The notes below the pieces were generated by a model that saw only the letters and a program-made list of their open reading frames with translations, was not told the origin of the DNA and did not search any database. From an uncultured Actinomycetota bacterium (GTDB lineage: Bacteria > Actinomycetota > Actinomycetes > Actinomycetales > Microbacteriaceae): a DNA stretch of 64,000 nucleotides. This document shows positions 5,410-53,106 of the stretch, piece by piece. Location: positions 173,140-237,139 of the forward strand of contig CAWJWQ010000011.1 in NCBI GenBank assembly GCA_963846615.1. Direction: 5' to 3'. How positions within the stretch are numbered: the stretch's first letter is position 1; each line of letters opens with the position of its first letter. A program made the position numbers and the translations under genes.

Positions 5410-5516
5410 TCGTCCTGATCGCCGCGGTCGCGCTGGCCGCCTGGGGCGTGATCGCCACCATCGTGAGCCGTCCCGCGACGGCTACCGCCGCATCCCGACG
5501 CACGATCGCTCGCTGA
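5406..5516 (+). CDS. Possible small single-pass membrane protein (36 aa as read)
   Basis: ATG at 5406 lies 7 nt after GGAGG. Translation reads MIVLIAAVALAAWGVIATIVSRP... The 3' frame is uncertain. Confidence 0.3.
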   Translation: MIVLIAAVALAAWGVIATIVSRPATATAASRRTIAR

Positions 5517-31658: not shown

Positions 31659-31718
31659 CCGCCAAGGATGCCGGACGGGGTCACCCCGCGCTAGTGGTCT
31701 CGATGCGCCGCTCCGCGG

Positions 31719-32658
31719 CTACTCGACCGCCGGGATCGTGAACGTCACGCCCGTCTTCTCCTCGGCGAGCGCCCAGAGGTAGGCCGCCGAACTCCGGCGA
31801 GGCGCTGGAGGTGACGGGTGCGAGAGGCGTCGGTGGCCCGGTGAGCAGCATCCGCGCCGGGCCGAAGAACGTCCCGCTCTCCGCGTCGGGGTCGATGGCG
31901 GCGCGCACCGAGCTCCATGCCCCGTCGTCCTTGCCCTGGCCGACGATCGAGAACAGCACGATCTCGCTCAGCCGCCGCCAGCGCGGCTGGTCGGTCACGC
32001 CTGGCCGCTTCCCAGCGAGGCCGGTGACCGCGAATCCCGGATGGGCGAGCAGCGACTTCCGCGAGTCGCCCGCAGTGCGGAGGCGGCGATCGAGCTCGAA
32101 GGCGAAGCCGTGCACGGAATGCTTCGAGAAGGCGTAGGCACGAAACGGCCGGTAGCGCCGCTCGGACAGCAGATCGGACGGGACGAGCCGCACCATCCGG
32201 GTCGACATGCTGCCGAGGCCGACGACCCGGCCGGCGGCGGTGAGGGCGGGGAAGAGCTGTGCCGTCAGGGCGAAGTGCCCGAGCGCGTTGCCGCCGACGA
32301 GCAGCTCGAGGCCGTCGGCGGTGACCCGACGACGCCGGGGCGGGATCACCAGGCCCGCGTTGTTGACGAGCGCGTCGATCGGGCCGAGAGCGGCGATCAC
32401 CGCGGCTGCCTCGCGAATCGAGTCCAGGGAGGCCAGGTCGAGGTGCGCGAACCCGACGTCGGCGTGAGGAACGCGGCTGCGGATGGACCCCATCGCGGCA
32501 TCGGCCTTGTCGCGGGATCGCGCCGCGATGATCACCCTCCCGCCGGCGGAGGCCAGCTGCTCGCTCGTGAAGTACCCGACGCCGGCGTTGCCGCCCGTGA
32601 CCACGAACGTCTTGCCGGCCTGCGAGGGCAGGTGCCGGGGGTCCCACACCGCGGTCAC
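31719..32658 (-). CDS. SDR-family oxidoreductase. One frame break near the 3' end.
   Basis: Text reads KTFVVTGGNAGVGYFTSEQLASAGGRVIIAARS, VNNAGLV and YAFSKHSV. GTGA overlap with the chorismate mutase gene. Confidence 0.85.
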
Positions 32659-32978
32659 GAGGCGGGGTGCGAGTCCGTGGTGATCGATCCCGTCGCGAAG
32701 CGCTCGTGGTGGTGGATGACCTCGGCGACGACGAAGTTGAACCACTTCTCGGCGAAGGCCGGATCCAGCTGCGCCTCCTCGGCGAGGGCCCGCAACCGTG
32801 CGATCTGGGTGCGTTCGCGCTCCGGATCGGAGGGCGGCATCCCGTTCGCGGCCTTGAGTCGTCCGACCTGCTGCGTGAATTTGAACCGCTCCGCGAGCAG
32901 GTGCACGAGGGCGGCGTCGATGTTGTCGATACTGAGCCGCAGACCGGCCAGATCAGCGGCTACATCCTGCTCAGGCAT
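32655..32978 (-). CDS. Chorismate mutase (AroQ class). Intact 107 aa.
   Basis: Text reads LAGLRLSIDNIDAALVHLLAERFKFTQQVGRLKAANGMPPSDPERERTQIARLRALAEE. Confidence 0.85.
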   Translation of the reverse strand: MPEQDVAADLAGLRLSIDNIDAALVHLLAERFKFTQQVGRLKAANGMPPSDPERERTQIARLRALAEEAQLDPAFAEKWFNFVVAEVIHHHERFATGSITTDSHPAS

Positions 32979-33046
32979 GAAGCGAGACTACCGGGTGTAC
33001 AGCCTTGTCTGTCCCCACAAGTGGGAGGGGTGATAAGTCCTCAGGG

Positions 33047-33082
33047 GGGTTCCCGAGGGGGTGAGAGCGCGGGTTAATGGAG
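33047..33082. promoter_or_regulatory. GGGTTAA-family array R1: three 12-bp-phased units (GGGTTCCCGAGG, GGGTGAGAGCGC, GGGTTAATGGAG)
   Basis: GGGT starts fall at 33047, 33059 and 33071. The array sits between the divergent chorismate mutase (start 32978) and LuxR (start 33183) genes. Confidence 0.5.
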
Positions 33083-33182
33083 GAAGTCGTACGCACCGGG
33101 TCCTCTCAGCCGGTGATCCCCGCCGTACCGACATCGGGCTGCTTGCCGCACCCAGGTCGGTCATCCCCCTCAGGAGTACCCG

Positions 33183-35723
33183 GTGCCGAACCCGCTTCAC
33201 CACGGCATCCCGGTCGCGCGCGGACCGATCGCCACCACCGCGTTCTCGCCTCCTGCACTCGACACCCGCATCACGATCGTCCCCGACCTGCCGCTCGTGC
33301 CCGTCCGCGCCGTCGTCGCGACCGCGCTCGCCGCCGACAAGAGCGCGCGCGACATCGTCTGGGCGGAACTGCCCGCAGCGCCCGCCGACGACCGTGAGGC
33401 GTGGGACGCGATCCGCAGCGCGCTGGCCGCGGCGACCGGGTCCCCTGACGGCGGCGAGCCCGATGAGGCCGTGGCCGCTCAGCTCTCCGCTCTCAAGCGA
33501 CCGCTGCTCCTGGCTCTCGAGCTCGCGCCGGGCGTCTCGCACGAAGTCGACGCAGGCCTGCTCGCGCTGCTCACCGACGCTCCGCACTTCTCGATCCTCG
33601 CGATCTGCTCCGGTCGCCGCATGCTCGAGGTCATGGGGCGTGGCGAGCACGGCGCGCAGCTGGTCTCCCCGGTATCCCTCGTCGTCGAGGCGGCCGAGAT
33701 CCGACGGTTCGCGGGCAAGCTCGGCGTGAAGCTCAGCGACGAGGACGCGCTCGCGCTCGCCCACTCGCCGATGATGCTGCCCGACGTGCTGCCGGCGGTG
33801 ATCGCCTCCGCGAGCCTCGAGGAGATCGAGACCCAGGGCGACGCCGTGTCCTACCTCCTCGACGAGTGCGAGAACTATCTGACGATGCGGTTCCGCGCCT
33901 CCTCCGACGGATCGGTGACCGGGCTGCTGCCGCTGGCCGTGCCCTCGACGCTCACCGCCGACATCCTGGAGATCGTCGCTCCGGAGATCGCCGCCCGCAC
34001 GCCGCTCGACCGGGCGGCGCTCTCCCGCATCATGATCCGCGAGAGCGCCGCGGGCGACGGGCGTTACCGCATGGAGCCGATGCTCCGCCGCATCTTCATC
34101 CTCGAGCTCAAGCTGCGCGACCCCGCGCTCGCCCGACGGCTGAGCTCGTCGCTCGGCGAGCACTTCCGCGAGCGCGGCGAGGTCTTCGAGTCGATCGCCC
34201 ACTTCTCCGACGCAGAGGACTGGGACTCGGTCATCGAGACGCTCGACAGCGAGATGTTCCGGCTGCTCGCCGAGGATCCGCTGCGGGTACACGACGCGAT
34301 CCTCGCGCTGCCCCGCAAGGTGCGCGACGACAACCCGCGCTTCACGCTCTGCCTCGAGGTCGGATGGCAGCCGCGCGAGGGGCTCGCACAGGCGTATCTC
34401 ACGATCGCCCGCCGTGCGGCCGGCATCTTCGCGCGGCTGCCCCGCGAGATGTCGCCGTGGGATCTGCTCCACGTGCTGCTCATCAAGTCCATCGTGTTCC
34501 GGCTCAAGGGCGACTTCGCGGCTGCGCTCGAGGCGGCCCGCGCTCTGGACGCGCTCCTCGACGGCGATGACGACATCGCCGGACGCCCGATCGGCACGCT
34601 CGCCGAGGCGCACTACCAGTCCGGGATGACGCGGCTGCTCGGCCTGGACATGGTCGGTGCCCGCGAGAGCTTCACGCGATCCTTCACGCTCACGCAGAAT
34701 CGCGGTGAGGCAACCGACACGCTCGCCGAGCGCGCCGCGGAAGCCACCGCGCTCGTGCGTGCGCTCGAGGGCGAGACCGATCACGCCTCCACCTGGCTCG
34801 GTCTCGTCGCCGAGACATCGCTCGGGACCGCGGGTCTCGTCGCGCACGCCCTGATCGCGATGGGTCGGCTCGAGCCGGCCGAGGCCCGGCACTGGCTCGC
34901 GTCGCTCGCCGATCCGAGCACCCACGACGAGCTCTGGCCGTTCGCGGTGCACGCGGCGAACCGGTACGGCCTCTACTGGGGCGACCCGGTCGAGACCGAC
35001 GGCGCGCTCGACCGCACCTGGGCGGAGCACGGCGAGCAGCTGGTCGCGGGATCGACCGCGCAGGTGCTGCTCACCAGCGACGCCGCCGACCTGGCGCTCC
35101 TGCTCGGGCAGCTGTCCCGCGCTGAGGCCGCTCTCGACGGGGTCCCCTCGCGCAACACCTGGATCGCCGTGCCGCGGGCGCGACTCGCGCTGCTCGGCGG
35201 CAACCCCAAGCACGCGCTCCTCTTCATCCTCGAGGGGCAGCGCCGCGGACGCACCGAGCGGTACGGGCAGCTCGACCTCGCCGTCCTGCGCGCGGCTGCC
35301 GAGCTCGCGCTCGGTCGCGAGGACGACGCCACGGCATCCCTGCTCCGCGCGGTCAACCAGGCCGACAAGTCCGGCGTGATCGTCGCCTTCCACCTGCTGC
35401 CGCACGAGACTCTCCAGTCGCTCGCCGGTCTCTCGCCCGAGGCTGAGCGCTTCGTCGAGCGGCACGACCTGCAGGGCACCAGCTATCTCGCCCCGTACAC
35501 GGCCGTCGCCGGTGCCCTGAGCGAGCGCGAACTGATCGTGCTGCGCGCGCTCGAGCCGGGGGCGACCGTCGAACAGATCGCGAAGAAGCTGTTCGTCGCG
35601 TCGAACACCGTCAAGGCGCAGCTTCGGTCGATCTACCGCAAGCTCAACGTGTCGACGCGCACCGAGGCGCTGCTCGTCGCGGCCGAACTCGGCCTGCTCG
35701 ACGCGGACTCGCGCTCCGCGTAG
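33183..35723 (+). CDS. Large LuxR-family transcriptional regulator (MalT/LAL-like architecture). Intact 846 aa.
   Basis: The C-terminal HTH reads LSERELIVLRALEPGATVEQIAKKLFVASNTVKAQLRSIYRKLNVSTRTEALLVAAELGLL. A long helical, TPR-like middle region precedes it. I could not find a GxxxxGK[ST] P-loop. Confidence 0.85.
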   Translation: MPNPLHHGIPVARGPIATTAFSPPALDTRITIVPDLPLVPVRAVVATALAADKSARDIVWAELPAAPADDREAWDAIRSALAAATGSPDGGEPDEAVAAQLSALKRPLLLALELAPGVSHEVDAGLLALLTDAPHFSILAICSGRRMLEVMGRGEHGAQLVSPVSLVVEAAEIRRFAGKLGVKLSDEDALALAHSPMMLPDVLPAVIASASLEEIETQGDAVSYLLDECENYLTMRFRASSDGSVTGLLPLAVPSTLTADILEIVAPEIAARTPLDRAALSRIMIRESAAGDGRYRMEPMLRRIFILELKLRDPALARRLSSSLGEHFRERGEVFESIAHFSDAEDWDSVIETLDSEMFRLLAEDPLRVHDAILALPRKVRDDNPRFTLCLEVGWQPREGLAQAYLTIARRAAGIFARLPREMSPWDLLHVLLIKSIVFRLKGDFAAALEAARALDALLDGDDDIAGRPIGTLAEAHYQSGMTRLLGLDMVGARESFTRSFTLTQNRGEATDTLAERAAEATALVRALEGETDHASTWLGLVAETSLGTAGLVAHALIAMGRLEPAEARHWLASLADPSTHDELWPFAVHAANRYGLYWGDPVETDGALDRTWAEHGEQLVAGSTAQVLLTSDAADLALLLGQLSRAEAALDGVPSRNTWIAVPRARLALLGGNPKHALLFILEGQRRGRTERYGQLDLAVLRAAAELALGREDDATASLLRAVNQADKSGVIVAFHLLPHETLQSLAGLSPEAERFVERHDLQGTSYLAPYTAVAGALSERELIVLRALEPGATVEQIAKKLFVASNTVKAQLRSIYRKLNVSTRTEALLVAAELGLLDADSRSA

Positions 35724-35729
35724 CCGCGA

Positions 35730-38376
35730 CTACCGGGTCTGCCCGTCGTCGTCGCGCGGGTCGGAGAACCGCGGGTCGGCGGCACGGCGGTCGGGGAGTC
35801 CGATCGGACGCAGCACGGTGTCTTCGAGCCGGTTGTCGAGCACCGACTCGAGCTCCCGCTTGTCGTGGGCGAGCTGCTCCCGGATGCTGACCGCCAGCCG
35901 CTGCTGCTCGCGCATCAGGCGGTCGTGCGCGACCCGCTCGAGTTCGCGGGAACGCAGCTCGTAGCTCTCGCGCGCCTGGCGCTCGGGGTTCGGCCCGGAG
36001 TCGGTCACGGCACCCTGACGTGCGGCCCGCACCTCGACCCGCGGGAGTCCGCCGATCTCGCCGAGCAGGCTCCCGGCGACCGCGACGGTTTCGCGCTCGC
36101 GCTCGGGGGCGAGATCGGCGGTGTCGGCGGTGTCCGGCTTCCGCGCGGCCGTCGAGAACCTTCGGGGGGATCGTCGACGAGGTCGGGGCGGGCAGGATGT
36201 GGCGGATCGGCGGCGGGATCGTCGCGGCCTCCTTCGCGTCCTTCTGCATCCGGATGGAGACGGTGTTCACGACCGTGCCGGTGACGGCGGGCTCGCGCAC
36301 CCTGCCCTGGGTTCCGATCGACGGGGCGGGGGCGTTGGCGTAGGCCGACGCGACGCTGGGGGTCAGCTTCGACGGGTCGGGGGCGAACCGCGACGACCGG
36401 CCTCGGCGGATCCGGCCGGATGACGATCGGCCGCTCGACGACCTTTTCGATGGCGCCGGGCGCGACTGCTCGATCTCGGGCACGATCGATCCCGCGCGCT
36501 GCTCGTCCGCCGTCGCCGTGGGCAGTGCGGCGAACGCGAAGTCGAGATCCTTCGCCGAGGTGAGGCTGTGCTCGACCGACGTCGGCAGAGGCTCGGGCTT
36601 CGGGGGCGTGGATGCGGCGGGCACCTTGGCGGGCTTGGCGCGGGCTTGGCGGGAGCCTTGGCGGGCTTGGCCGGCTCCTGCGAAGCCTCGAGCTCGGGCG
36701 GCCACGGGCGCCGCAGGGTCGGCCAGGTGGGTCGGCGCCTTCTCGACGACGGGCGGCGCGACGGGCTTCGGCTCCCGGGGCCGGCGGCACCTCCACGACC
36801 GGCTGCCGCCTCCCGCGCGGCGGGCTCCGCCGCGCGCCGGCACGTACCGGGGCACGAACTCGGGTGCCGCCGCGGAGACCGGCAGGTCGCGCCGGCGAGC
36901 GGGGCCGCGACCGAACAGCCGGCGGCGGGGAATCGCGTTGAGCACGATGCCGACCGGGATGCTTCCGCCCGACGCGAGCAGCGAGAGGGCGTCCTCGAGG
37001 CGCGGCCGGGTCGTGGTTCCCTCCGCGAGCACCAGCAGTGTCGAGCTGTCGAAGGAGCCGAGGACGGCCGCGTCCGTGACGGCCGAGATGGCGGGCGCGT
37101 CGATCAGCACGACCTCGAAGCGGCGGCGGAGCTCCGCGACCAGCTCGCGCATCGTCGGGGTGGCGAGCAGCTCGCCCGGGTTCGAAGGGCGAGCGCCTGC
37201 GGGCAGCACCGTCAAGCGGCCGCCGTCGCTGCTCTGCAGCGCAGCATCCAGAGACGCCCGGCCGGCGAGCACCTCGGTCAGCCCCAGCGCGCCGTGGATG
37301 CCGAACAGACGCGACAGAGCTGAGCTGCGCAGGTCGGCATCCACGACGACGATCGAGGTCGCCGTGTTGGCGAGAGCCACGGCGAGGTTGGCGGTGATGG
37401 TCGTGCTCCCCTGCCCCGGCCCGGCGGCGGTGATCACGAAGCTGTGCCGTCCGTCGCGGGTGCGCAGGTGGTCGATGTGAGCACGGAGGGCGCGGAACGC
37501 CTCCGCGATCGGAGCACCCGCCCCGCTGCGGGCGACCAGCGGCGTCGTCCACACGGTGCGGTCCGCCGGGATGTCTCCCAGGATCGGGATGCGGGCGACG
37601 GCCGCGATGTCCTTCGGCCCGCGCACTCGGGTGTCGAACGCCTCGCGCAGCGACGCGGCGAGGAGGCCGACGGCCAGCCCGAGGACGCCTCCGACGAGGA
37701 GCAGCAGGCCGCCGTTCGACGGCAGCGGCGCGGTCGGCAGCGCGGCCTCTTCGATGTTGACGATGCGCACGGGGGCGATCGGCTTGCTGATCGGCACCAC
37801 CGTGCCGTTGGGCAGCTTGGTCGTCGACGGGGTCGGGGTCGGCGCCGCGCCCGCCGTGGCACCGGGGGCCGGGGTGGGGTCGACCGTCGTGCCGTTCGTG
37901 GTCTCGAGCTGGTTCGCCACGACGTCGCTGAACTCGGCGCTCACGGCGTTCGCGAGGTCGCGCGCCAGCTCGGCGCTGGCCGCCGTCGCGGTGATCTCGA
38001 TGATGAACGTTGCCGGTGGCGCCGTCACGGTGATCTGCCGAGCGAGGTCCTCGACCGTGGTGTCGAGCCCGAGGTCGTCGATGACCGGCTGGAGCACGAG
38101 ACCGCTGGATGCGACGAGCACGTAGGAGGCGATCCGCGACTCCGTGAAGTTGCTGGCCTGCAGCCACTCGGTGAGGTCGCCCGAGGTCTTGTTGGTGACG
38201 AGATCCCGCGAGGTGGCCGAGTAGCTCGGGCCCTCCATCGACTGGACGGCCGCGCCACCCAGGAGTCCGAGCACGACCCCGAGCACGATGAAGACCAGGC
38301 CGCGGCGCAGTACGCCGAGATACTCGTGGACGTCCATTGGGGGGATGGCTCCGGGGGGTGCGGGTTTCCCTGCCAC
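35730..38376 (-). CDS. Wzz-type chain-length determinant fused to a BY-kinase-like P-loop domain, with a long Pro/Ala-rich C-terminal extension and a coiled-coil tail. Frame break(s) near 36100. The start may instead be 38337.
   Basis: Text reads MDVHEYLGVLRRGLVFIVLGVVLGLLGGAAV, second TM LLLLVGGVLGLAVGLLAASL, FVITAAGPGQGSTTITANLAVALA, VVVDADLR, EVVLIDAPA and TLLVLAEGTTT. The tail in ORF 35730..36032 reads ERQARESYELRSRELERVAHDRLMREQQRLAVSIREQLAHDKRELE. Confidence 0.8.
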
Positions 38377-38452
38377 GCGGGGGGAGGACAGGTGTCTTCA
38401 GGCTAGAGAATCCGGGCCTTCTCCGACCCCGGAGGTTGCGGTGAACGCCTCA

Positions 38453-38486
38453 GGGTTGTTCGGGGTTAAGGGACGGGTTAAGGGAC
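38453..38486. promoter_or_regulatory. GGGTTAA-family array R2: GGGTTGTTCG followed by the exact tandem GGGTTAAGGGAC x2
   Basis: The exact 12-bp direct repeat lies at 38463-38474 and 38475-38486. The TTAA at 38478 supplies the TAA stop of the flippase gene. The array is 90-130 nt upstream of the Wzz/BY-kinase start. Confidence 0.55.
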
Positions 38487-39768
38487 CGTGGCGGGCACGG
38501 GCTCGACCCGTTCCGAGGGGGTCGGACTCGGTGCGGCGTCCCGGACTCCGCGCAGTGCGCTCCGCAGTGACAGGTACTGCCACACCGTGACCAGCAGGTT
38601 TCCGCTCACCAGCGCCCACACGGCGAATTCGGGCGCGAACGCCTCCACGAGCAGCAGCGCGACCAGGGTCACCAGCACTCCGACGGCGACGCTGAGGGCG
38701 ATCGTGCGCAGCCTCCCGAAGGTCATCAGCCCGATGTTGGTGAGATACGGCGAGACGATTGCCGTGGTCATGTTGATCCCGAACGCCATCGCGGCGGCGA
38801 CCGTGAAGGGGACCTGCCCGTGCGTGAGGAAGTCGCTGAACGACGGGAGGAACACGGTGTAGAGCAGCCCGCCGACGACAGCCGTGGCCAGCGTGACGGC
38901 GCCGGCGACGCGCATCCGGCGCACCAGCTCCGTCCCCGGATGCGGCGGGCACCCAGCCCTGGAACATCTGCAGCAGCGGCGAGACCGCCATCGCCACGAA
39001 CTTGCCGAGCCGCTCGGCCAGCACGAACATCGGCAGCAGGACCGGGGACAGCAGCGCGATGATCGCGAGCGCCGCGGGCATGTAGGCGGCGAGCAGGCCG
39101 GTCGCGACGACGCCGTGACGTTGCTCGACGAGGCTGCCCCAGATCCGCTGCCAGCGGGCGGCGGCGCGGAGGTCGAGCGGCTGGCCGCGAAAGATCGCAC
39201 CGCACGAGACGAGCAGCGCGACCAGTGCGCCGGCAAGCTGGCCGATGGCGAACATCAACAGCTGACCGGTGGAGGCGACGGCGATCACGCCCGCGACCGT
39301 GCCCGACACCCGCGGCACGGTTTCGAGCAACAGGAACCGGTCGGGGCGGCTCTCGCCGGTGAAGTACCAGTTCGCCGAGGCGCCCGCCATGGTCATGGCG
39401 GTGCCGGCGATGAACGCGACGAGCTTCTCCTGCGGCACGATCGCGAACGTCACGGCGGCCTGGATCGCGAGCACGGGGATGAGCAGCACAGCGCGGGCGA
39501 AGAGCGAGTCGAGGAACATGGCGGGCCGCCGCGCGGCGTCGGCCATCGCGATCGTGACCGGGCCGGTCAGGCCCCAGCCGAAGATGACGAACACGCCGAA
39601 CGATGCGCCGATCGCCTGCCCGGTGGCCATCGACGCCCAGGGGTCGGCGCCGACCACGGCCACGATCACGGGGATCGAGATCAGACTGACCGTTCCGTTC
39701 AACAGCACCGACAGGCCGAACAGGCCGATGCCGCGCGAACGCTCCACGAGCCCGGTCCGCCAGTTCAC
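38478..39768 (-). CDS. Wzx-like polysaccharide flippase (MOP/PST family). One frame break near 38930.
   Basis: The protein is multi-pass and hydrophobic throughout. Text reads GLFGLSVLLNGTVSLISIPVIVAVVGADPWASMATGQAIGASFGVFVIFGWGLTGP...ASANWYFTGESRPDRFLLLETVPRVSG. Confidence 0.75.
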
Positions 39769-39777
39769 GGCGTCATC

Positions 39778-40647
39778 TCAGCCCGCCGGGCATGCTCGAG
39801 CGCTCGGGAAAGCCTGCGCGGCGAGCTCGAGCACGTCGCGCAGCATCGCCGCGCGCACCTGGGCGCCGAACAGGGAATGGTCTCCGAAGGGGTAGTCGGT
39901 GACCCGCAGATCGGCACCGCGACGACGCAGCCGCTCGACGGCGCCGGGGCCGCGGTGGTGGGCGAAGTTCTCGGTGTCATCCGGCGTGAGCATCAGTGCG
40001 ACGACGGTGCCGGGACGCCGGGTCGCCGGCTCGAGCAGCGTCTGCGGGTCGTGGAAGAGCTGGAGCCGCGCGGCGACGCGCCAGACCCAGCCGGGGGTGC
40101 GTTCGCGGATCCGCGCCTTCAGTTCGCGGAACGGCATCCGACCCTCGATGTCCTGCCGGGTGAGTTCGGCGTACCCGTCGGCGGGCAGCCCGTGCAGCTT
40201 GAAGTACGTGGGACTGAGCAGGACGGTGAGCCGGGTCGGCCGGAGATCGGCGATGCGGGCAGCCACCCAGGCGCCGGAGCACAGCCCGACGTGGGCGATC
40301 GGGACGTCGGCCGCCAACTCGCCCACCAGCGCATCGACGTCGTCGATCCACGCCTCCGCGAAGATCAGGTTCGGTTCACCCACCCGCACCGGCGTGCTGT
40401 CGCCGGTGATGCGCCGGTCGAACCGGATCGCGCGGATGCCCCGGGCCGCCAGCTCACGCGCCGCGACGACCTGGAAGCGGCCGGGCCCGACGCGGTGCTC
40501 GGCGGCCCCGGGCTGCAGCACGACCACACCCGCCTCGGCGTCTGCCTCGTGGTGGTCTTCGCGCACGCTCTCGATCGCGAACAGGCGCTCGGGGCCGAAG
40601 CGCAGCAGCCGCTCCACGACGGCCACGCCGTCGGGCGCCGTCGCCAC
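39778..40647 (-). CDS. Alpha/beta-hydrolase-fold module 2 (nucleophile elbow GLCSG). It may be fused to module 1.
   Basis: Text reads GVVVLQPGAAEHRVGPGRFQVVAARELAARGIRAIRFDRRITGDS and IAHVGLCSGAWVAARIA. The 289-aa frame is intact and paralogous to module 1. Confidence 0.7.
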   Translation of the reverse strand: MATAPDGVAVVERLLRFGPERLFAIESVREDHHEADAEAGVVVLQPGAAEHRVGPGRFQVVAARELAARGIRAIRFDRRITGDSTPVRVGEPNLIFAEAWIDDVDALVGELAADVPIAHVGLCSGAWVAARIADLRPTRLTVLLSPTYFKLHGLPADGYAELTRQDIEGRMPFRELKARIRERTPGWVWRVAARLQLFHDPQTLLEPATRRPGTVVALMLTPDDTENFAHHRGPGAVERLRRRGADLRVTDYPFGDHSLFGAQVRAAMLRDVLELAAQAFPSARACPAG

Positions 40648-40649
40648 CC

Positions 40650-41449
40650 GGGCCTCCGCGCTGGATCCGCGGCCGGACGATCGTCCGTGCCAGCGGCATC
40701 CTGCGATCGACCCACTCGACGATCTCGCGGACGGCGCCGGCCGGAAGCACCGCGAGGGCGCTCGGCGCCTCGATCCACTCCGCGTGCCCGTCGAGCGGAG
40801 AGACCGTCGATCCGGCGGGCAGCGCGGCGGCGAACCGGGTCACCGCAGGTGCGTCGAGCTCGGCCCGGCGGACGAGGGCGAGGGTGTCGAGGGCGATGGG
40901 CGTGATCTCGACGCCTTCGAGCCACGCGATGGAGTCGGGATGAAGGGCGAGCGACAGCAGCGTGAGCCGCTCGGGGTCGGTGGCCTCCTCGCCGACCGTC
41001 AGGTCGAAGAGCGACTTCTGCCGACGGAGGAACCGGTGTCCCGACAGCGCCGGATCCCACAGCACCAGGCCGTCGAGGTCCGGGATGCGGCGCGCGGCCT
41101 CGGCGGCGAGGAGCGCCCCAGCCGCAAGGCCCGCGAGCACGATGCGCTCCACCCCCGCGGATCGGAGGGCGGTGACCGCCTGCTCGATCGTCGCCAGCCA
41201 GAGCTTCGCCGCATCCGGGACCGCCGTGTCGCCGCTGGCATCACCCTCGCCGACGTAGTCGAAGCGCAGCGATGCGATGCCGCGGGCCTCGAGCTCCTGG
41301 CTGAGCAGCCGCAGCCCGCGATAGCCGAGCACCTGCTCGTAGCCGAGCGGCGGACAGATCACGACACCGCCGCGGGCACCGCCGTCCGGCACGTGCAGGA
41401 ACCCGAGGCTCGGAGCGTCCGGGTCGCCGAACCAGGTGTCGTGCATCAT
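40650..41449 (-). CDS. Alpha/beta-hydrolase-fold module 1 (elbow reads GLAAG). No stop is found before module 2.
   Basis: Text reads MMHDTWFGDPDAPSLGFLHVPDGGARGGVVICPPLGYEQVLGYRGLRLLSQELEARGIASLRFDYVGEGDS and ERIVLAGLAAGALLAAEAA. A GGAAAGG RBS precedes the start. Confidence 0.65.
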
Positions 41450-41472
41450 CTCGGGGTCAGCGCCTTTCCGTG

Positions 41473-42418
41473 TTACAGGCCGAGGCGGGCGCGCACGCCG
41501 ACGGGCCAGCCGTCGACATCGAGACCGTGAGTGCGAAGCAGCGCGAGCGTGGTGCGCTCCATGCCGAAGGCGAGGCAGGCGGCGTGGGCGACATCGCCGT
41601 CGGCGGTGCGGATGCCGAAAGCCGCGGTGAGGTGGTCGCGCTGGCAGTTGGCGCTCGCGATCGCGGTGCCCTCGGCGAGGTCTCCGTACATCGGGACGAC
41701 GATCTCGATCTTGAGGTTCTCGCGCAGCTGGGCGCTGATCAGCATCTTGCCCGCGCGCCCGAAGAACGGGTCGTTGGCGGCCACGGCGTCGACCGGCAGG
41801 CCGAGCGACCTGCAGCGTCTCGATCGCGTTGTCCAGCCAGGTATCGCGGTACTCCTGCGCGCCGTCCGGGTCGCCGACGTACACGAACTCGTGCATCCGG
41901 AACGACTGCATGCGCATCGGATCGAGCGACGGCTCGTGGCGGAAGCCGTAGCCGAAGATGTCGAAGACGCCACCGCCCTCGGGGAGCCGTCCCTCCAGGG
42001 TGGCGTAGAGCGGGTGGCAGATCGCGTTGGTGAGCACGATCTCGCTGGGGTCGAGCCAGCCGTCCCAGGCGCTCGCCCTGCTCGCGCGCCGCGAGGAGCT
42101 GCGCGGTGCTCGCGGTCGCCGCGCTCGAAGCTGGAGACGATGCCGCTCAGGTCGGGGAACGAGGCGATGTAGTCGGTGCGCTCGAAGTCCGCGCGCGGGT
42201 ACACCGGCGGGAAGCGCAGCGCGGTCGCGCCGAGCGGCTCGGCCATCTCGACCAGCACGCGGTCGAGGCCGGTGAGGATCGCCTCGAACGTCGCGGAGCG
42301 CCCGTAGATGCCGGGCACGGACGTGCCGATCAGGAGCCCGGCGTCGAGCAGGTCGGACGCGGAACTCCAGGCGTGCGCGGTCGAGCGGGCTCAGTTCCGT
42401 TTCGAGGATGTCTGTCAT
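41473..42418 (-). CDS. Class II aminoacyl-tRNA-synthetase-like amino acid:[carrier protein] ligase (catalytic core only). At least four frame breaks.
   Basis: Text reads SVPGIYGRSATFEAILTGLDRVLVEMAEPLGATALRFPPVYPRADFERTDYIASFPDL, VLTNAICHPLY, FDIFGYGFRHEPSLDPMRMQSFRMHEFVYVG (motif 2-like) and HAACLAFGMERTTLALL (motif 3-like). The gene encodes about 315 aa and leaves no room for a tRNA-binding domain. Confidence 0.8.
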
Positions 42419-42672
42419 GCCGTCTGTCCTTCCAGGGTCAGCTGCTCCACCGCATCCCGGATCGTCGCCACGGAGGAGAAGGTCTGCTTCGTCAGCAGGT
42501 CGTCGGGGAACTCGACGTCGAAGGCGTCCTCGAGGGCGAGCATCACGTTGACGCTCGCGTGCGAGGTCATGCCGGCCGAGTACAGGTCGTCCACCTCGGG
42601 GAGGCCGGCGGCGGGCGCGCGCAGTTTGGCGTGCGCGTCGAGCACGGCCCGGATGCGGTCGTCGGTGGTCAT
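42415..42672 (-). CDS. Acyl/aminoacyl carrier protein (85 aa)
   Basis: Text reads MTTDDRIRAVLDAHAKLRAPAAGLPEVDDLYSAGMTSHASVNVMLALEDAFDVEFPDDLLTKQTFSSVATIRDAVEQL. There are ATGA overlaps on both sides. Confidence 0.8.
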   Translation of the reverse strand: MTTDDRIRAVLDAHAKLRAPAAGLPEVDDLYSAGMTSHASVNVMLALEDAFDVEFPDDLLTKQTFSSVATIRDAVEQLTLEGQTA

Positions 42673-43124
42673 GCCGTCGCCCCCTGCCGCGATGGCGAGC
42701 TGCGGTTCGGCCGGGATCGCGGCGGCGACCGCCATCGCGATGCCGCCGTCGTGGCTGAGGGAGATGTCGATGCGCGTCGATGCCCTGCCGCTCGGCGATC
42801 GCCTGCGCGGTCGCCGGTCAGCACGACACGGGGACGCCGTTGCGACCGGTGCGTACCTCGATCGACTGCCACGGCACGGCCGCCGTGCTCGGCACCCGCA
42901 GCACCTTGAGCACCGCCTCCTTGGCGGCGAACCGCCCGGCGAGGCGTTCGAGCGCCATCGGCCCCGCGGTCTGCTTTCGCTCGACGCGGGGTGAACACGC
43001 GCGCGAGGTAGCGCTCGCCGAAGAGCTCGATGCTCTCGGCGATCTCGGAGATCGGGTGGACGTCGCAGCCGATCCGGATGCGCGGGGCATGTCTCGGCGC
43101 GGCGCGCTCGGGGGTGCGCTGCAT
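42669..43124 (-). CDS. 4'-phosphopantetheinyl transferase (AcpS-like). Frame breaks.
   Basis: Text reads IRIGCDVHPISEIAESIELFGERYLARVFTP, LAGRFAAKEAVLKVL, WQSIEVRTGRNGVP and ISLSHDGGIAMAVA. Confidence 0.75.
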   Translation of the reverse strand: MQRTPERAAPRHAPRIRIGCDVHPISEIAESIELFGERYLARVFTPRRAKADRGADGARTPRRAVRRQGGGAQGAAGAEHGGRAVAVDRGTHRSQRRPRVVLTGDRAGDRRAAGHRRASTSPSATTAASRWRSPPRSRPNRSSPSRQGATA

Positions 43125-43221
43125 GGGGAGTCCTTCGGCGGACGCGACGGGGGGAACGCACGTCCGTACTCAACCTAGGGACGGGGCGCCGCCACGTCGC
43201 CGGGGAGGCCGACCGAAGCGG

Positions 43222-43246
43222 GGGATTAACCGGGGGGTTAACGCGG
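43222..43246. promoter_or_regulatory. GGGTTAA-family array R3: GGGATTAACCGG followed by GGGGTTAACGCGG
   Basis: TTAA lies at 43226 and 43238, exactly 12 bp apart. The array sits in the divergent gap between the PPTase operon (start 43124) and the GT2 gene (start 43267). Confidence 0.5.
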
Positions 43247-43266
43247 CCCTGTGAAAAGCTGGGCCC

Positions 43267-44155
43267 GTGCCCCGGCTGAGCGTCCTCATCCCCGCGCGTA
43301 ACGCCGCCGGCACGATCGGAGTCCGCTCTCCGCTCGACCCTGCGCGATCTGCCCGACGACGCCGAGATCCTGGTCCTCGACGATGCGTCGAGCGATGGCA
43401 CGGCCGAGCTCGTCCGCCGTATCGGCGATCGACGCATCCAGCTCACCGTCGCCCCTGAGAATCTCGGGGTCGCCCGCGCGCTGGCCCAGCTGCTCGATCA
43501 GGCGGAAGGCGACCTGGTAGCCCGGATGGACGCCGACGACGTCTGCCTGCCCGGCCGGTTCCGCGCCCAGCTCGCGCGCCGATCGAGCGCGGCGCCGACC
43601 TGGTCTTCTCCACGTTCCAGGTCATCGGCGCCGGGCTGCGGCTGCCGGCGCTGCCCGTACCCTTCGGGCCAGAGGCCGGTCGGCTCGCCCTGCTGCTCGA
43701 CTGCCCCTACCCGCATTCCACGGCTCTCGCTCGACGCAGCGCCCTCGTCGACGCCGGCGGCTACCGGATCGTCCGTCGCCGAGGACTACGACCTCTGGTT
43801 GCGCGCCGCCGCCGTCGGGCGCCCGCATCGTGCGGCTCGGCCGCGCCCGGCATCCTGCTGCGGGTCAGCGCCGGGCAGCTCACCGCCGATCCCGGATACC
43901 GGGTCGCGGCTCGCCGCCGATCCGCTCGTCGCCGAGTCCTACCGGGCTCTTGCGCACGAGCTGTGGGGCGTCGACGAGACGCCGTGGCTGCGGGAGCTGG
44001 CGTTTCTTCGCCAGGGACCGCTGAGCCCCGTTGGGAAGAGTCTTCTCGAGCCGTTCATCCATCGCTTCGTCACCTCACTCCGCGATCTCGGCGCGCTGGA
44101 GCGCTGGTACCTGACGCGTCGTGCCCGGCAGGAGCTCGGGCTGCGCGCTCGCTGA
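43267..44155 (+). CDS. Family 2 glycosyltransferase. Several frame breaks.
   Basis: Text reads MPRLSVLIPARNAAGTI. The shifted frame gives AEILVLDDASSDGTAELV and DLVARMDADDVCLPGRF. Later text reads VAEDYDLWLRAA. Confidence 0.8.
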
Positions 44156-44222
44156 CGAGCGGGCTCGGCAGGCCGCGCCGGAAGCACGGCGGGCACGAGG
44201 CACGCCGCGAGCCCGACCCAGA

Positions 44223-45473
44223 TCAGCGGCATCGACAGGTCGGGCACCGCGATGATCGCCCGACACCAGGATGCCGAGCAGCGCCCAGCCGGCCGGCACC
44301 GATGCGGGGCTGCGCTGCGCTGCGGCGACGCAGCGCGACGACGACGAGGGCGACCAGCAGGATCGTGCCGACGAGCCCGAGGCAGCTGAGCACGAGGAAG
44401 AACAGGCTCGACGGCCGGTGGCTGCCGAGCCCGACGCCGAGGCCGACGGTCTCGAGGAAGATCTCCCACGAGCGCTCGTTGGCGAGACCTCGGGCGAGGT
44501 AGCTGAACGACGACGCCTTGCGTTCCACCGACCCGATCGTCAGCTCGTAGAGGGCGGGCAGCTGCGTGATGCCGGCCGCGAGAGCCGCGGTGCCGAGCAC
44601 GACCATGACCGGGCTGATGCCGAACCGCGGCGAGCGCAGCTGGCGCACGAGCAGCACCGCGGCGCCCACCGCCGTCACGATGACGAGTCCGAGGAGCGCG
44701 GTGCCCGACGCGTTCGCGACGAACTCGATCCCGACGAGGACGAGGGCGACCACCGCAGCGAGACGGGCGCGCGGCGCGGCGCCGGGCCGGAACAGGCGCA
44801 CCCCGAAGTAGCAGGCCGCCGCGACGATGTAGAGGCCGAGCACCGACGGCTCGTAGAAGGTGCCCGAGAGCCGTTCGGGCGTCGCGTACGAGTAGCCGGG
44901 CATGTTCTGCAGGAGCGCGTGCGGCCACACCGGCTCTGCGACCAGCCGCACCGCCGCCAGCACGAGCGCCACCCAGAGCGCGCTGCCGAGCAGTCGGCGT
45001 GTCGACCGGGAACCGATCGCCCGGCGAGCAGCACGAAGAGCACGCCGAGGGTGAGGTATCCGAGCTGCGCGATGTTGCCGAGCGAGGGCTCGAGGAGCGC
45101 CATGTTGCCGACCTGGCCGTCGACGCCGAGCGCCGGGTCGAAGACGCGCGTTCCGGCGAAGATCCGCGGGCCGGCGATCGTGATGACCGCGGCCCAGACG
45201 ACGAGCGCGACCGCGAGCACGTCGCCGACGGAACCGCGCCGAGCCCGACCGGTCACGCACCGGGCGCGCGACCGCGATCAGCAGCCCCGGCACGCTCAGC
45301 ACCGCGAGCACGACGACCGCCAGGTAGAACAGCGGGAATCCGTTGTCGTCGACGACGAGCCCGGCGGTCTGCGGGAACGCGACGGTTGCGCCGACGACGA
45401 GCTGGGTCGAGCGGCGGTGCACGAGCCAGACGCCCACGACCGCGATGACGGTGACGATGCCGAGGAGGGTCAT
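44223..45473 (-). CDS. Wzy/O-antigen-ligase-like polysaccharide polymerase. Frame breaks. The true 3' end is uncertain and may extend to about 44100.
   Basis: The protein is multi-pass. Text reads MTLLGIVTVIAVVGVWLV, LGNIAQLGYLTLGVLFVLLAG, SGTFYEPSVLGLYIVAAACYFGV, ASGTALLGLVIVTAVGAAVLL and SWEIFLETVGLGVGLGSHRPSSLFFLVLSCLGLVG. Confidence 0.65.
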   Translation of the reverse strand: MTLLGIVTVIAVVGVWLVHRRSTQLVVGATVAFPQTAGLVVDDNGFPLFYLAVVVLAVLSVPGLLIAVARPVRDRSGSARFRRRRARGRARRLGRGHHDRRPADLRRNARLRPGARRRRPGRQHGAPRALARQHRAARIPHPRRALRAARRAIGSRSTRRLLGSALWVALVLAAVRLVAEPVWPHALLQNMPGYSYATPERLSGTFYEPSVLGLYIVAAACYFGVRLFRPGAAPRARLAAVVALVLVGIEFVANASGTALLGLVIVTAVGAAVLLVRQLRSPRFGISPVMVVLGTAALAAGITQLPALYELTIGSVERKASSFSYLARGLANERSWEIFLETVGLGVGLGSHRPSSLFFLVLSCLGLVGTILLVALVVVALRRRSAAQPRIGAGRLGAARHPGVGRSSRCPTCRCR

Positions 45474-45955
45474 CGGCCGGCCCGCTTCTTCTCAGGCGAA
45501 CGCAGCCCCTCCCGCTCGCGCAGGCCGACCCGCCGGGCCGGGATGCCGGCCCAGATCTCGTAGGGGCCGGTCGACTCGCGCAGCACCGCATTGGCGCCGA
45601 CGATGGTGCCCTCGGCGATGACGAGCTCCTGACCGGAGGCGAACAGCACCTTCGCGCCCGCGCCGACGGTCACGTCGTCACCGATGACGACGCGGCCGCC
45701 GAGGTGGGCGACCTGCTCCGGCGGGATCCAGGAGTCGGCGCGCCCGATGACGACGCCGGGCATCAGGATGACGTCGCGGCCGATCCGGGTCGAGCGGTGG
45801 ACGACGAGACCGACGGCGCCGTGGGCGAGCTCGAGCGGGCCCTCCCACTCGACCTCGCGCGGGAACTCGACGCCGAGGGCCTTCAGGGCGAGGTATGCGG
45901 CGCGCCCCACGATGCGCGAGCGCGTGGCCCGCAGCAGGCGGTCCTGGACGCTCAT
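45470..45955 (-). CDS. Hexapeptide-repeat (left-handed beta-helix) acetyltransferase. Intact.
   Basis: Text reads IGRDVILMPGVVIGRAD and GGRVVIGDDVTVGAGAKVLFASGQELVIAEGTIVGANAVL. ATGA overlap with the GT4 gene. Confidence 0.8.
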   Translation of the reverse strand: MSVQDRLLRATRSRIVGRAAYLALKALGVEFPREVEWEGPLELAHGAVGLVVHRSTRIGRDVILMPGVVIGRADSWIPPEQVAHLGGRVVIGDDVTVGAGAKVLFASGQELVIAEGTIVGANAVLRESTGPYEIWAGIPARRVGLREREGLRSPEKKRAGR

Positions 45956-47130
45956 GCGCGCACCCTCGCGAGCTCGTCGTACAGCCTCAGCACGCGCTCG
46001 CCGTGCACGTCGAAGTCGAGATCGCGGGCGCGCTCCCGTGCGCCCGCCGCGAGGCGGGATCGCAGGGCGGGATCGAGCAGGCGCGACATGCCCGCGCGGA
46101 TGGCCGCGGCATCCGGGGCCACCAGCACGCCGTTCGCCTCGGGCTCGACGACCGGCGGAGCGGCGACGGTCGTGCTGAGGATCGGCAGCCCGGCGAGCAC
46201 GCCCTCGGCCGCGGCGAGCGGGAAGTTCTCGGGCCAGATCGACGGGATGACGAGCACGCCGGCCGCGGCCAGCGCCGTCCGACGTGCCGTCTCGTCGAGC
46301 CAGCCGAGCTTGCGCACGCGTCCTGCCGCGGCGGCCGCGTCGACGGCGGGCTCCATCGGCCCGGAGCCGGCGATCCAGAGCTCGGCGCCGGGAAGCCCGT
46401 CGCCCCACGCCTCGAGCAGCAGCCCGACGCCCTTCGTGTCGAGCAGCTTGCCGAGGAACAGGAACACGACCGGGTCCGCGGCGCGGGTCGGGCGCGCGCC
46501 CGCGCCGCGACGGACGCGGCGCCCAGCCGCCAGCCGTGCGGCAGCACGGTCGTGCGCTCCGGCAGCGGCAGCCCCCACCGCGCGTGCTTGTCGCGCAGCC
46601 GCGCGTTCGGGAACACCAGGTGCGCCGCTCCGACCGTGCGGCTCACCACCGCCGTGCGCAGGCGCTGCACGAGCGGCGGCCGCGCGGCCTCGACGCCCCG
46701 GCGCAGCAGGGTCGAGCTGGTGTCGACGAGGGCGTAGTCGTGCACGGTGACGATGACGGGCGCGGGCGACGAGGCGAGCAGCGCGGAACCGAATCCGGCG
46801 ACGCGGTGCACGTGCACGAGGTCGAAGCCCGGCGAGCGCGCGGCGCACGGCGGTCGGGGTGCGGATGCTGCCCAGCAGGTCGAGCGCGTGGAACAGCACG
46901 GCCGCCGGACGCGATCCCTTGCGATCGGGCGGGTACGGCCGGCGGCTGCGCACGACGCGGACCGCGATGCCCTCGCCGGCGAGCTGCCCGGCGAGTCCGG
47001 GCGAGATCCAGCCGGTCACGATCGTGACCTCGTGCCCGTGATCGCGCAGCCAGCGGCTGAGCTCGAGGCAGTACTGCTCCGCCCCGCCCAGCGGCGCCAG
47101 CAACGAGCTCACGAACTGCGCGATCTTCAC
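45952..47130 (-). CDS. GT4-family glycosyltransferase (a). Frame breaks.
   Basis: Text reads VKIAQFVSSLLAPLGGAEQYCLELSRWLRDHGHEVTIVTG, HVHRVAGFG, VFLFLGKLLDTKGVGLLLEAW and VLVIPSIWPENFPLAAAEGVLAGLPIL. Confidence 0.8.
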   Translation of the reverse strand: MKIAQFVSSLLAPLGGAEQYCLELSRWLRDHGHEVTIVTGWISPGLAGQLAGEGIAVRVVRSRRPYPPDRKGSRPAAVLFHALDLLGSIRTPTAVRRALAGLRPRARAPRRRIRFRAARLVARARHRHRARLRPRRHQLDPAAPGRRGRAAAARAAPAHGGGEPHGRSGAPGVPERAAARQARAVGAAAAGAHDRAAARLAAGRRVRRGAGARPTRAADPVVFLFLGKLLDTKGVGLLLEAWGDGLPGAELWIAGSGPMEPAVDAAAAAGRVRKLGWLDETARRTALAAAGVLVIPSIWPENFPLAAAEGVLAGLPILSTTVAAPPVVEPEANGVLVAPDAAAIRAGMSRLLDPALRSRLAAGARERARDLDFDVHGERVLRLYDELARVRA

Positions 47131-50884: not shown

Positions 50885-51005
50885 TCACCCCACCGGCGAC
50901 ACTGAGAGAGACGCCGGTGGGGTCATCGGGTTTGCGGGGGAGATGCCGGGGGGATGCGGCACTGCCCACGTTAGGAACCCGGTGGCGCCCGCGTCCCCCA
51001 TCCGG

Positions 51006-51079
51006 GGGTCGGAAACGCGGGCTAACCCGTGAACACGGCCCAGGGGATGGGACGCGGGTTAAGCCGCGGGTTAAGCCCG
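51006..51079. promoter_or_regulatory. GGGTTAA-family array R4: degenerate phased units followed by the exact tandem CGCGGGTTAAGC x2
   Basis: GGGTC is at 51006, GGGCTAA at 51019 and GGGAT at 51044. The exact 12-bp repeat lies at 51054-51065 and 51066-51077. The TTAA at 51071 supplies the TAA stop of the GNAT gene. The array is about 175 nt upstream of the priming transferase ORF start. Confidence 0.55.
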
Positions 51080-51730
51080 CAGCCCGCTCGCGCTGCGGAA
51101 CAGCACCGGCCGGTCGCCGTACGCGGCGAGGCGGCGCCTCGAGCCCGGCCGCACGTCCGGCCACTCGTCGTCAAGGATCGAGAAGACGGCGGAGTCGCGC
51201 CACGAGCCGTCGGCGCGCAGCGCTCTCGCGGCGCACGATGCCCTCGAAGCTGCGCGCCGAGCTTCTCGATCGCGCGCGCGCGACCGCTCGTTGCGCGTCG
51301 TCGGCCTGCAGCTTCACCCGGCCGAACCCGCGCGCGAAGGCGAGCCCCAGCATCAGCAGCTTCGTCTCGGGGTTCACCTGCGTGCCCCAGACGCGCGGGT
51401 CGTAGCCGGTCCAGCCGATGTGGGCGTGCTCGCGCTTCCTCGTCGAGGTCGCCGAGCGTCGACGCGCCGACGATCTCGCCGTCGTGGGGACCGCCGACCA
51501 GCCGCACGACGTAGCGATGCGGTTGGCGCCGGCGTCGTACGCGATCGACCCAGCGTCGAACGCCTCGCGATCGCGCGGCAGCCCGGCCGGACCGCCGCCG
51601 TAGCCGCCCGCGAACACCGCGGGATGCCCGAGCGCCGTCGCACAGGCCGGGGTAGTGCTCGGGCGTCATGCGGCTCGAGGCGCACGAAGCGCCCCTCGAG
51701 CACGGCGGGTTCGGGTCGCACGGCGGTCAT
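51071..51730 (-). CDS. GNAT-family (RimJ/RimL-like) N-acetyltransferase. Several frame breaks.
   Basis: Text reads MTAVRPEPAVLEGRFVRLEP, HAHIGWTGYDPRVWGTQVNPETKLLMLGLAFARGFGRVKLQ and DSAVFSILDDEWPDVRPG. Confidence 0.75.
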
Positions 51731-51781
51731 CGCTCCATCCTCGCATCCGTGCGCTGCGCCATTCCACGTACCGTGGCGGCC

Positions 51782-53085: not shown

Positions 53086-53106
53086 ACCCGGACCTCCCCC
53101 GGCGGC

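Follow-up and report, generated by a model that had tools for sequence, protein, structure and literature searches.

The ops element of RfaH-dependent polysaccharide operons lies in the transcribed leader, where it is read on the non-template strand by a paralogue of NusG. The E. coli regulator MalT recognises asymmetric boxes in direct repeat (PMC7567727). MilO, a LuxR-family, cluster-situated activator of mildiomycin biosynthesis, has been shown to bind upstream of a biosynthetic operon's promoter, at three imperfect direct repeats that have a period of 13 bp and all contribute to binding (PMC11784345). In Actinoplanes sp. SE50/110, an actinobacterial MalT-like LuxR regulator is encoded inside a large co-regulated region, and a conserved motif upstream of many transcription units, the palindrome TCATCC-N5-GGATGA overlapping the -35 element, is common to related genomes (PMC7567727).

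The locus compared with these systems here is a surface-polysaccharide/glycolipid cluster of a Microbacteriaceae genome, contained in a 64-kb stretch of DNA (hereafter the window); the comparison also covers pieces of about 20 kb from other genomes. Four arrays of the heptamer GGGTTAA and its variants (R1 to R4), stepped at 12 bp, lie in it, together with a gene for a large LuxR-type protein. On the strength of sequence comparison, we consider it probable on balance that the arrays are operators of a locus-specific transcription factor, most probably the adjacent MalT-like regulator, which would activate the cluster.

GGGTTAA arrays and their conservation

Pfam matches and comparison with orthologues place a short-chain dehydrogenase (31681-32745) and a chorismate mutase (32655-32978) on the minus strand, next to the candidate binding protein, an 846-aa LuxR-type regulator (33183-35723), on the plus strand. 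The minus strand further carries a Wzz/BY-kinase gene of the long type (35644-38337; Pfam Wzz/CbiA/AAA_31), whose start at ATG 38337 is backed by the conserved N-terminus MDVHEYLGVLRRG; a unit made up of a flippase-like gene, a hydrolase gene, an unknown gene and the genes for ACP and ACPS (about 38505-43124, ACPS starting at 43124); a glycosyltransferase unit with an acyltransferase gene, GT4 genes and a sugar-transferase fragment, the first gene of which starts at GTG 50869; and purA (53018-54394). A GT2 gene (about 43298-44176) lies on the plus strand. Relative to its orthologues the BY-kinase gene shifts frame near 36150 (tblastn frames), many genes of the window's locus likewise shift reading frame against intact orthologues, and the acyl-CoA dehydrogenase of relatives is missing. 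These features point to assembly indel errors or to gene decay.

The window is GC-rich (71.5%), and TTAA occurs in it only eight times, seven of them inside the four arrays. GGGTTAA is found six times, always on the plus strand (33071, 38463, 38475, 43235, 51056 and 51068), against an expectation of 0.28 from dinucleotide shuffles, none of 100 of which reaches six; these counts cover 64 kb of the genome. When the pair pattern GGGTTAA-N5-GGGTTAA is searched with up to two mismatches, its matches in the window are the four arrays only (expected 0.00). R1 (33047..33077, plus strand) is a triplet of GGGTTCC (33047), GGGTGAG (33059) and GGGTTAA(TGG) (33071) in 12-bp steps, situated 106-136 nt upstream of the regulator start at 33183. 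R2 (38453..38486, plus strand) consists of GGGTTAAGGGAC twice in tandem at 38463-38486 (units at 38463 and 38475; TRF: period 12, 2.0 copies, 100% match), preceded at 38453 by GGGTTGTTCG with its degenerate unit GGGTTGT. R3 (43223..43241, plus strand) pairs GGATTAA (43223) with GGGTTAA (43235), and R4 (51056..51074, plus strand) comprises GGGTTAA at 51056 and at 51068. TTAA cores stand exactly 12 bp apart at 38466/38478, 43226/43238 and 51059/51071. The exact tandem with its degenerate neighbour, the rare TTAA cores in 12-bp pairs, the phased triplet and the common strand of GGGTTAA are therefore all as first described. The 12-bp period differs from the helical repeat, so that successive units lie on different faces of the helix.

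Start codons were corrected against orthologues before distances to the arrays were measured. The proximal unit of R1 lies 69 nt from the chorismate mutase ATG (32978), R2 116-126 nt from the BY-kinase start, taken as ATG 38337 instead of GTG 38376, R3 99 nt from the ACPS ATG at 43124 and R4 187 nt from the GTG at 50869. The initial annotation placed R3 ahead of the PPTase (ACPS) operon, but the region is divergent, since the array sits between that operon on the minus strand and the GT2 gene on the plus strand. The flippase gene, the open reading frame ending at 38478, does take its TAA stop from the distal TTAA of R2, and gene calls in the related loci L002, L006 and L007 end in the same way. 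A stop codon inside an array needs no special explanation, because TTAA is nearly the only stop-containing sequence in such GC-rich spacers, where any TTAA has a one-in-three chance of terminating a reading frame. Because several arrays run into the 3' end of the gene ahead of them, they also occur in RNA.

Orthologous loci were gathered in three ways, namely through homologues of the regulator, through a metagenome scan with a regulator alignment and through a homologue of the long BY-kinase. The arrays are common to about 16 related Microbacteriaceae loci, whose regulators are 56-93% identical, and they recur at the heads of the corresponding units; the initial annotation's idea of a shared cis-element, for which it had named orthologous loci as a check, is strongly supported by this conservation. 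In every regulator-bearing locus that reaches these intergenic regions, GGGTTAA-N5-GGGTTAA pairs with a constant orientation, on the regulator's strand, are found at the heads of these units, upstream of the BY-kinase gene, the ACPS operon and the glycosyltransferase unit. Pairs orthologous to R2 are present in L001, L002, L004, L006, L007, L074, L132-135 and L144, and arrays are kept even in L001 and L007, in which the gene content from the regulator to purA is quite different. The triplet GGGTTCC/GGGTGAR/GGGTTAATGG is always found upstream of the LuxR-type regulator gene; in its fuller form, GGGTTYC-N5/6-GGGTGAR-N5-GGGTTAATG, it precedes every regulator orthologue.

Across 264 kb of regulator-anchored loci, GGGTTAA occurs 56 times on the regulator strand and four times on the other, with about five expected per strand from composition. 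The same 264 kb contain 18 pairs at exactly 12 bp and, among the positions listed, no other short spacing. The core heptamer is invariant across loci, with 5-nt spacers and flanks that vary. A scan of reference genomes for the pair pattern gave, among the matches listed, mostly chance occurrences in low-GC genomes together with at least four in Microbacteriaceae, all in this type of locus (Leifsonia SCN 70-46, Salinibacterium G-O1, Rhodoglobus RYN_77 and the L001 contig). In two EPS loci of Microbacteriaceae that have ordinary BY-kinases of 450-480 aa but lack the regulator, neither GGGTTAA nor TTAACCC occurs in 21 kb each. Literature searches returned only primers and unrelated sequences for GGGTTAA and nothing relevant for EPS regulation in Microbacteriaceae.

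Register with predicted promoters

Read along the coding strand, every array is followed downstream by one well-placed TANNNT hexamer, two arrays having one extra candidate each. The hexamer usually occurs in the context CC(G/C)TAGNNTG, and its position is kept among orthologues in which the surrounding sequence has diverged. When distance is taken from the first T of the proximal strong TTAACCC unit to the first T of the hexamer, 24 arrays at non-homologous promoters give values of 51/52, 63/64, 76 or 89 nt, a lattice with a step of about 12.3 bp. The distal unit stands 12 further from the hexamer, and unit positions overall are 51/52, 63/64, 76, 89 and 101 nt; L144 adds two arrays, at 63 and 76. 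Orthologous promoters differ from one another by whole lattice steps (51/64 for R2, 52/64/76 for R3 and 51/76/89 for R4). At this base composition TANNNT is expected about 0.25 times per 85 nt, yet it occurs with all arrays at lattice positions, and its placement is therefore not due to chance. We infer that these hexamers serve as -10 elements, and they are treated below as predicted ones.

In the window, the predicted -10 of the BY-kinase promoter is TAGCCT (38400..38405, minus strand), the TANNNT being kept in 11 orthologous promoters; the TTAACCC units of R2 lie 64 and 76 nt upstream of its first T on the minus strand, which gives a lattice value of 64. For the ACPS/ACP operon the predicted hexamer is TAGGTT (43172..43177, minus strand), with R3 units 52 and 64 nt upstream (lattice value 52); in orthologues it reads TAAGTT, TACCCT, TAACGT, TAGCCT or TAGATT, again at lattice distances. 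The glycosyltransferase unit, with its first gene at GTG 50869, would be served by TAACGT (50968..50973, minus strand), which is TAACGT also in L007 and L046 and TAGCGT in L001. Here the strong units of R4 lie 89 and 101 nt upstream (lattice value 89), and a promoter-proximal degenerate unit, GGGCTAA (51019..51025, plus strand; TTAGCCC on the minus strand), occupies the position 52 nt upstream of the -10 T. A degenerate unit in the 52-nt slot accompanies a distant strong pair elsewhere as well, being TTAGCCC in L007, as in the window, and TTACCCC in L046.

If the hexamer is indeed the -10 element, with its first T at -12, the centres of the units fall near -61, -73, -85 and -98. The -35 regions downstream of the arrays are weak and variable. 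The arrays have the features of the direct-repeat operator class, that is, repeated asymmetric half-sites at a fixed spacing and at a fixed place with respect to a predicted core promoter, all of them conserved. The register with the predicted -10 is held in non-homologous promoters and across indels, which argues that the arrays act on DNA at the promoter. An alternative assignment, in which two TTAA cores form the -35 and -10 of a single promoter, was rejected since the 12-bp spacing is too short. An E. coli-type scan of 32500-52000 found no promoters, and terminators at or below chance frequency, a result that is uninformative for activator-dependent actinobacterial promoters. CCCCC-N4-GGGGG palindromes are seen near -40 in R4 promoters and adjoining R1.

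The regulator and the competing readings

The 846-aa regulator carries a C-terminal GerE helix-turn-helix (HTH) domain (residues 779-833, Pfam E=1.2e-13), as LAL/MalT-type regulators of the LuxR/GerE kind do, and this domain is invariant in all 12 aligned orthologues. Its sequence matches in the PDB are confined to GerE-type DNA-binding domains, and the Pfam match to TPR_MalT is weak (E=0.066). An AlphaFold model built from a 12-sequence alignment (pLDDT 78) lays out an N-terminal alpha/beta domain with strands at 30-34, 57-61, 108-114 and 136-142, then a helical arm bearing a small beta hairpin, followed by a long alpha-solenoid and the HTH. The best Foldseek matches in the PDB are the STAND-TPR protein 6mfv_A (E 1e-7) and MalT (8bob_C, E 5.8e-7), both with low TM-scores of 0.2-0.4. 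The N-terminal alpha/beta domain of the model may be a degenerate NTPase fold. Walker A (GxxxxGK[ST]) and Walker B motifs are absent, by regular-expression search, from the N-terminal half in 12 of 12 orthologues, isolated C-terminal matches being found in one orthologue each, and no Pfam AAA or NB-ARC match is obtained even at E<=1. In its modelled architecture the protein may resemble MalT-type regulators, but it lacks the ATP-binding motifs that mark the LAL family. Without Walker A and B, ATP-driven oligomerisation in the manner of MalT is uncertain. The closest relatives of the protein are annotated as Pseudolysinimonas, Rhodoglobus, Schumannella and other Microbacteriaceae.

R1, the array that accompanies the regulator gene in all cases, was assigned by the initial annotation to the chorismate mutase operon. 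This assignment does not stand. Where chorismate mutase is not next to the regulator gene (L006, L132-139 and L144), R1 is still found with that gene, and the leaderless -10 of chorismate mutase (TAGTCT-N6-ATG) is 72, 75, 87, 98 or 109 nt away, off the lattice. Because R1 follows the regulator gene and the chorismate mutase promoter is off the lattice, R1 is best read as an autoregulatory site of the regulator gene. Relative to that gene its units have the opposite orientation to those of the target promoters. Its middle unit (GGGGGTGAGAG) alone among all units bears a loose resemblance to the MalT box. A search near R1 for the regulator's own promoter gave no convincing candidate; a conserved 'TACCG' 54 nt after R1 was rejected as the -10, as it is without the final T and is absent in L134.

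The initial annotation had offered two forms of the shared element, a DNA-site array for a direct-repeat regulator, with the adjacent LuxR-type protein as the candidate, or an RNA-level signal. The 12-bp lattice, the presence of R1 at the regulator gene and the absence of the motif from loci without the regulator favour the former. We have high confidence in the arrays being sites on DNA for a transcription factor; that this factor is the neighbouring 846-aa protein, and that it activates rather than represses, are each proposed with moderate confidence. Each array would offer two or three directly repeated heptamer half-sites in 12-bp steps, which read TTAACCC along the direction of target transcription. 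The regulator would oligomerise through its STAND/TPR body and set its C-terminal GerE HTH domains head-to-tail on successive units (two to four heptamers). From about -61 upward it would recruit RNA polymerase to three poor promoters, those of the BY-kinase/Wzz unit, the ACPS-ACP-hydrolase-flippase unit and the glycosyltransferase unit, and through the oppositely oriented R1 triplet upstream of its own gene it would regulate itself. Points that count against this model are the 12-bp period, which is no helical repeat, the reversed R1 and the failure to find a convincing promoter for the regulator gene, the overlap of several arrays with transcribed gene ends, and the missing Walker motifs.

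A different protein encoded elsewhere, for example a response regulator or another LuxR/GerE-type protein, might instead bind the arrays, the adjacent regulator using other sequences. Motif and regulator are linked by co-occurrence only, a measure that does not separate the regulator from other parts of the locus, since wherever it is found the long BY-kinase is found too. Half-sites containing GGG serve as targets for many GerE-type proteins, and the C-rich palindromes near -40 at R4 and beside R1 could be the regulator's real sites. However, the motif is seen only in regulator-bearing loci and always upstream of the regulator gene, no other regulator gene is conserved in the locus, where this protein is the only conserved DNA-binding one, and motif and HTH are both invariant over the same range of divergence. 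A foreign binding protein is accordingly judged unlikely, though with a chance worth keeping in mind.

It is distinctly unlikely, in our estimate, that the regulator binds the arrays in order to repress or block, whether as a roadblock or terminator against read-through or as a signal-released repressor. Such a role would agree with the position of arrays across or right beside the stop codon of the co-directional gene ahead of them, and with the L006 group, in which R1 separates the regulator gene from a co-directional gene upstream. On the other hand, sites at -61 and beyond, weak -35 regions and phasing locked to the predicted -10 are typical of activators, and a roadblock needs no fixed register with a downstream -10.

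The second form offered by the initial annotation, an RNA-level signal akin to ops/JUMPStart, fits the arrays poorly. Here the readers of UUAACCC-N5-UUAACCC repeats would be an RNA-binding protein, Rho (through YC-rich sites spaced by about 12 nt) or an antitermination factor like that of ops/JUMPStart. Transcription of upstream genes does include the arrays in their 3' ends, and an inverted TTAACCC of the L133-135 group could pair with R1. The leaders themselves, from predicted -10 to start codon in the three target units, are C-rich (C 42%, G 25%), and (A/U)ACCCG occurs in them 34 times on the sense strand and never on the antisense strand; a first-order Markov model of these leaders predicts 3.1 copies, which makes an enrichment of about 11-fold in the leaders of all units. 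Yet the strong units lie upstream of the conserved predicted -10 of the unit that they head and in register with it, and R1 has the opposite orientation relative to its gene. Rfam 15 gives no match at gathering score in the whole window and none relevant at E<=1 in 32800-51300. Consensus folds of the BY-kinase leaders and of the region after R1 are weak (-3.5 and -0.5 kcal/mol) with almost no covariation, and the three copies of the ops consensus GGCGGTAG, at 5482, 14986 and 20000, all fall outside the locus and are as frequent as chance predicts. We therefore regard RNA-level repeats as improbable. In the L006 group alone, a local hairpin that follows R1 has some compensatory changes.

The leader motif is a separate matter from the arrays. 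It could be the RNA-level signal that the initial annotation had in mind, and it might represent Rho-loading sites, sites of an RNA-binding protein or further weak DNA sites. Some (A/U)ACCCG copies fall in hairpin loops in the L006 group, and similar sense-strand motifs occur in the regulator's own leader in most loci. A long shot is that a P-loop-less STAND-LuxR protein, or a partner of it, reads both the TTAACCC lattice of the promoter and ACCC-type signals of the leader. It would first bind duplex DNA to start transcription, and an ACCC-type signal in the non-template strand or the nascent RNA would then keep polymerase going through long operons. If true, this would give actinobacteria a functional equivalent of ops/RfaH that draws on another protein family.

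A chance or compositional origin, or descent from a small mobile or repetitive element, might be entertained because short tandem repeats are common in the GC-rich window (126 low-score TRF rows), but it is effectively refuted already by the shuffle counts (0.28 expected for GGGTTAA, 0.00 for pairs) and by the strand bias of 56 to 4 and the spacing in the 264 kb. With a core conserved across genera but spacers and flanks that vary from array to array, the arrays are not copies of a single element; a mobile-element (MITE) origin was likewise rejected, the flanks of the four arrays being unrelated.

Comparison with described systems

Operators of an adjacent MalT-like activator, the reading preferred here, would give a testable regulon for a surface-polysaccharide/glycolipid cluster in soil Microbacteriaceae (Pseudolysinimonas, Rhodoglobus, Salinibacterium and Leifsonia-like lineages), with one candidate regulator, a 7-bp half-site, three target promoters and the regulator's own. 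The 12-bp register tied to the -10 predicts how the DNA-binding domains of the regulator are arranged, and promoters and operon boundaries in these GC-rich, mostly uncultured genomes can be annotated with the help of the motif. As far as the literature searched shows, motif and regulon are previously undescribed.

Among the described systems, ops/JUMPStart shares with the arrays the principle of a short conserved element heading each long polysaccharide unit. It differs in kind, as the GGGTTAA arrays are phased repeats upstream of the predicted -10 and have no match to the ops consensus. OmpR/PhoB- or SARP-type sites are heptamer or hexamer repeats with a period of 10-11 bp that a winged-helix regulator encoded nearby binds, whereas every pair here is spaced at 12 bp, and the gene tables of the loci examined contain no winged-helix or SARP gene.

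The likeness to MalT of E. coli and Klebsiella is closer. Both regulators are large and end in a LuxR/GerE HTH, and the present one may share the STAND type of MalT, whose structure is one of the two that best match the model. Asymmetric sites in direct repeat, several to a promoter, occur in both systems, at activator-dependent promoters for MalT (PMC7567727) and at presumably activator-dependent ones here, and in both a divergent regulatory region carries an array. However, the MalT box is GGGGA(T/G)GAGG, from which GGGTTAA differs, and one such box overlaps the -35, whereas the units described here lie at least 51 nt upstream of the predicted -10, near -61/-73/-85. Further differences are the strict 12-bp spacing, the absence of Walker A and B motifs from the regulator and the nature of the targets, which are polysaccharide/glycolipid genes here and maltodextrin genes in the case of MalT.

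The Actinoplanes regulator matches the present one in type, in its setting within the genome and in having a conserved motif at many transcription units that related genomes have in common; its palindrome overlaps the -35, in contrast to the direct repeats further upstream found here (PMC7567727). With MilO the locus shares a LuxR-type HTH protein and phased direct repeats upstream of the promoter of a biosynthetic operon (PMC11784345). It differs from the MilO system in having several promoters, each with an array on a register tied to the -10, and, whereas binding by MilO has been shown (PMC11784345), we infer binding here. Set beside these systems, the arrangement is ordinary in kind, a cluster-situated LuxR/MalT-type regulator with direct-repeat operators. 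What goes beyond the ordinary is the strict 12-bp register tied to the predicted -10, a regulator that has no Walker motifs and a second motif in the leaders.

C-rich leaders and (A/U)ACCCG motifs

The leaders of the three target units, taken from the predicted -10 (a TANNNT hexamer downstream of the GGGTTAA arrays) to the start codon, lie on the minus strand at 38338-38399, 43125-43171 and 50870-50967. Together with the equivalent regions of the related Microbacteriaceae loci L001-L007, L046, L074, L091 and L132-135, these leaders are C-rich (42% C vs 25% G) and contain 34 sense-strand copies of (A/U)ACCCG against 3.1 expected, with none on their antisense strand. The motif occurs as TTACCCG, TACCCG and AACCCGA, is in some cases held in a hairpin loop, and in most loci is also found in the leader of the MalT-like, LuxR-type regulator gene. 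It may represent an RNA-level or Rho-related signal, separate from the upstream arrays.

Further elements around the promoters

A C/G palindrome of the form (G)ACCCCC-N3-4-GGGGG(AC) is present in the promoter downstream of R4, the array of the glycosyltransferase unit (50993-51010, minus strand), and such palindromes also occur in the R4 promoters of L001, L007 and L046. Its centre is ~40 nt upstream of the unit's predicted transcription start. R1, the array upstream of the regulator gene, has a similar palindrome, ACCCC-N4-GGGGT, that overlaps its distal unit, and most loci have one beside R1. Such palindromes might serve as another site for a protein, or form a hairpin in DNA or RNA.

One lineage carries TTAACCC in inverted orientation 36 nt downstream of the GGGTTAA of R1 (L133, position 2830; L134, 1230; L135, 9931; L139, 364). 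The two are separated by a short hairpin with compensatory changes across loci (AGGTCG/CGACCT vs ATGCCG/CGGCAT); the consensus fold of the region is weak overall.

From its sequence, the chorismate mutase gene looks leaderless: on the minus strand at 32978-32995, TAGTCT is followed after 6 nt by ATG, with GGGACA 18 nt upstream. This layout is kept in L002, L004 and L128-131, and in L001 and L007 with TATCGT or TATTCT.

Integrity and content of the locus

Most locus genes (35644-50869) show reading-frame changes relative to intact orthologues, namely the BY-kinase (near 36150), the flippase-like gene (near 38940), the hydrolase (near 40660), an unknown gene and the ACPS gene (three pieces each) and the GT4 genes, while the regulator gene is intact. 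The pattern suggests indel errors in a long-read MAG assembly, or pseudogenisation. In L002, L004 and L006 an acyl-CoA dehydrogenase gene (L002, 12312-13475) separates the unknown 318-aa gene from the ACP gene; it has no counterpart at ~42357-42448 of the window and is also absent from the L144 gene table.

The regulator and the BY-kinases

Neither Walker A nor Walker B was found in the N-terminal region of the regulator (33183-35723) in any of 12 orthologues. The structure model nevertheless keeps an N-terminal alpha/beta domain. One possibility is a regulator of the STAND type in which nucleotide binding has been lost. The locus-type BY-kinases (35644-38337 in the window) are unusually long: they span 650-1130 aa, and their C-terminal extension varies. 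They form a clearly separate group, with at least 44% identity vs at most 39% for the ordinary 450-510-aa BY-kinases of Microbacteriaceae.
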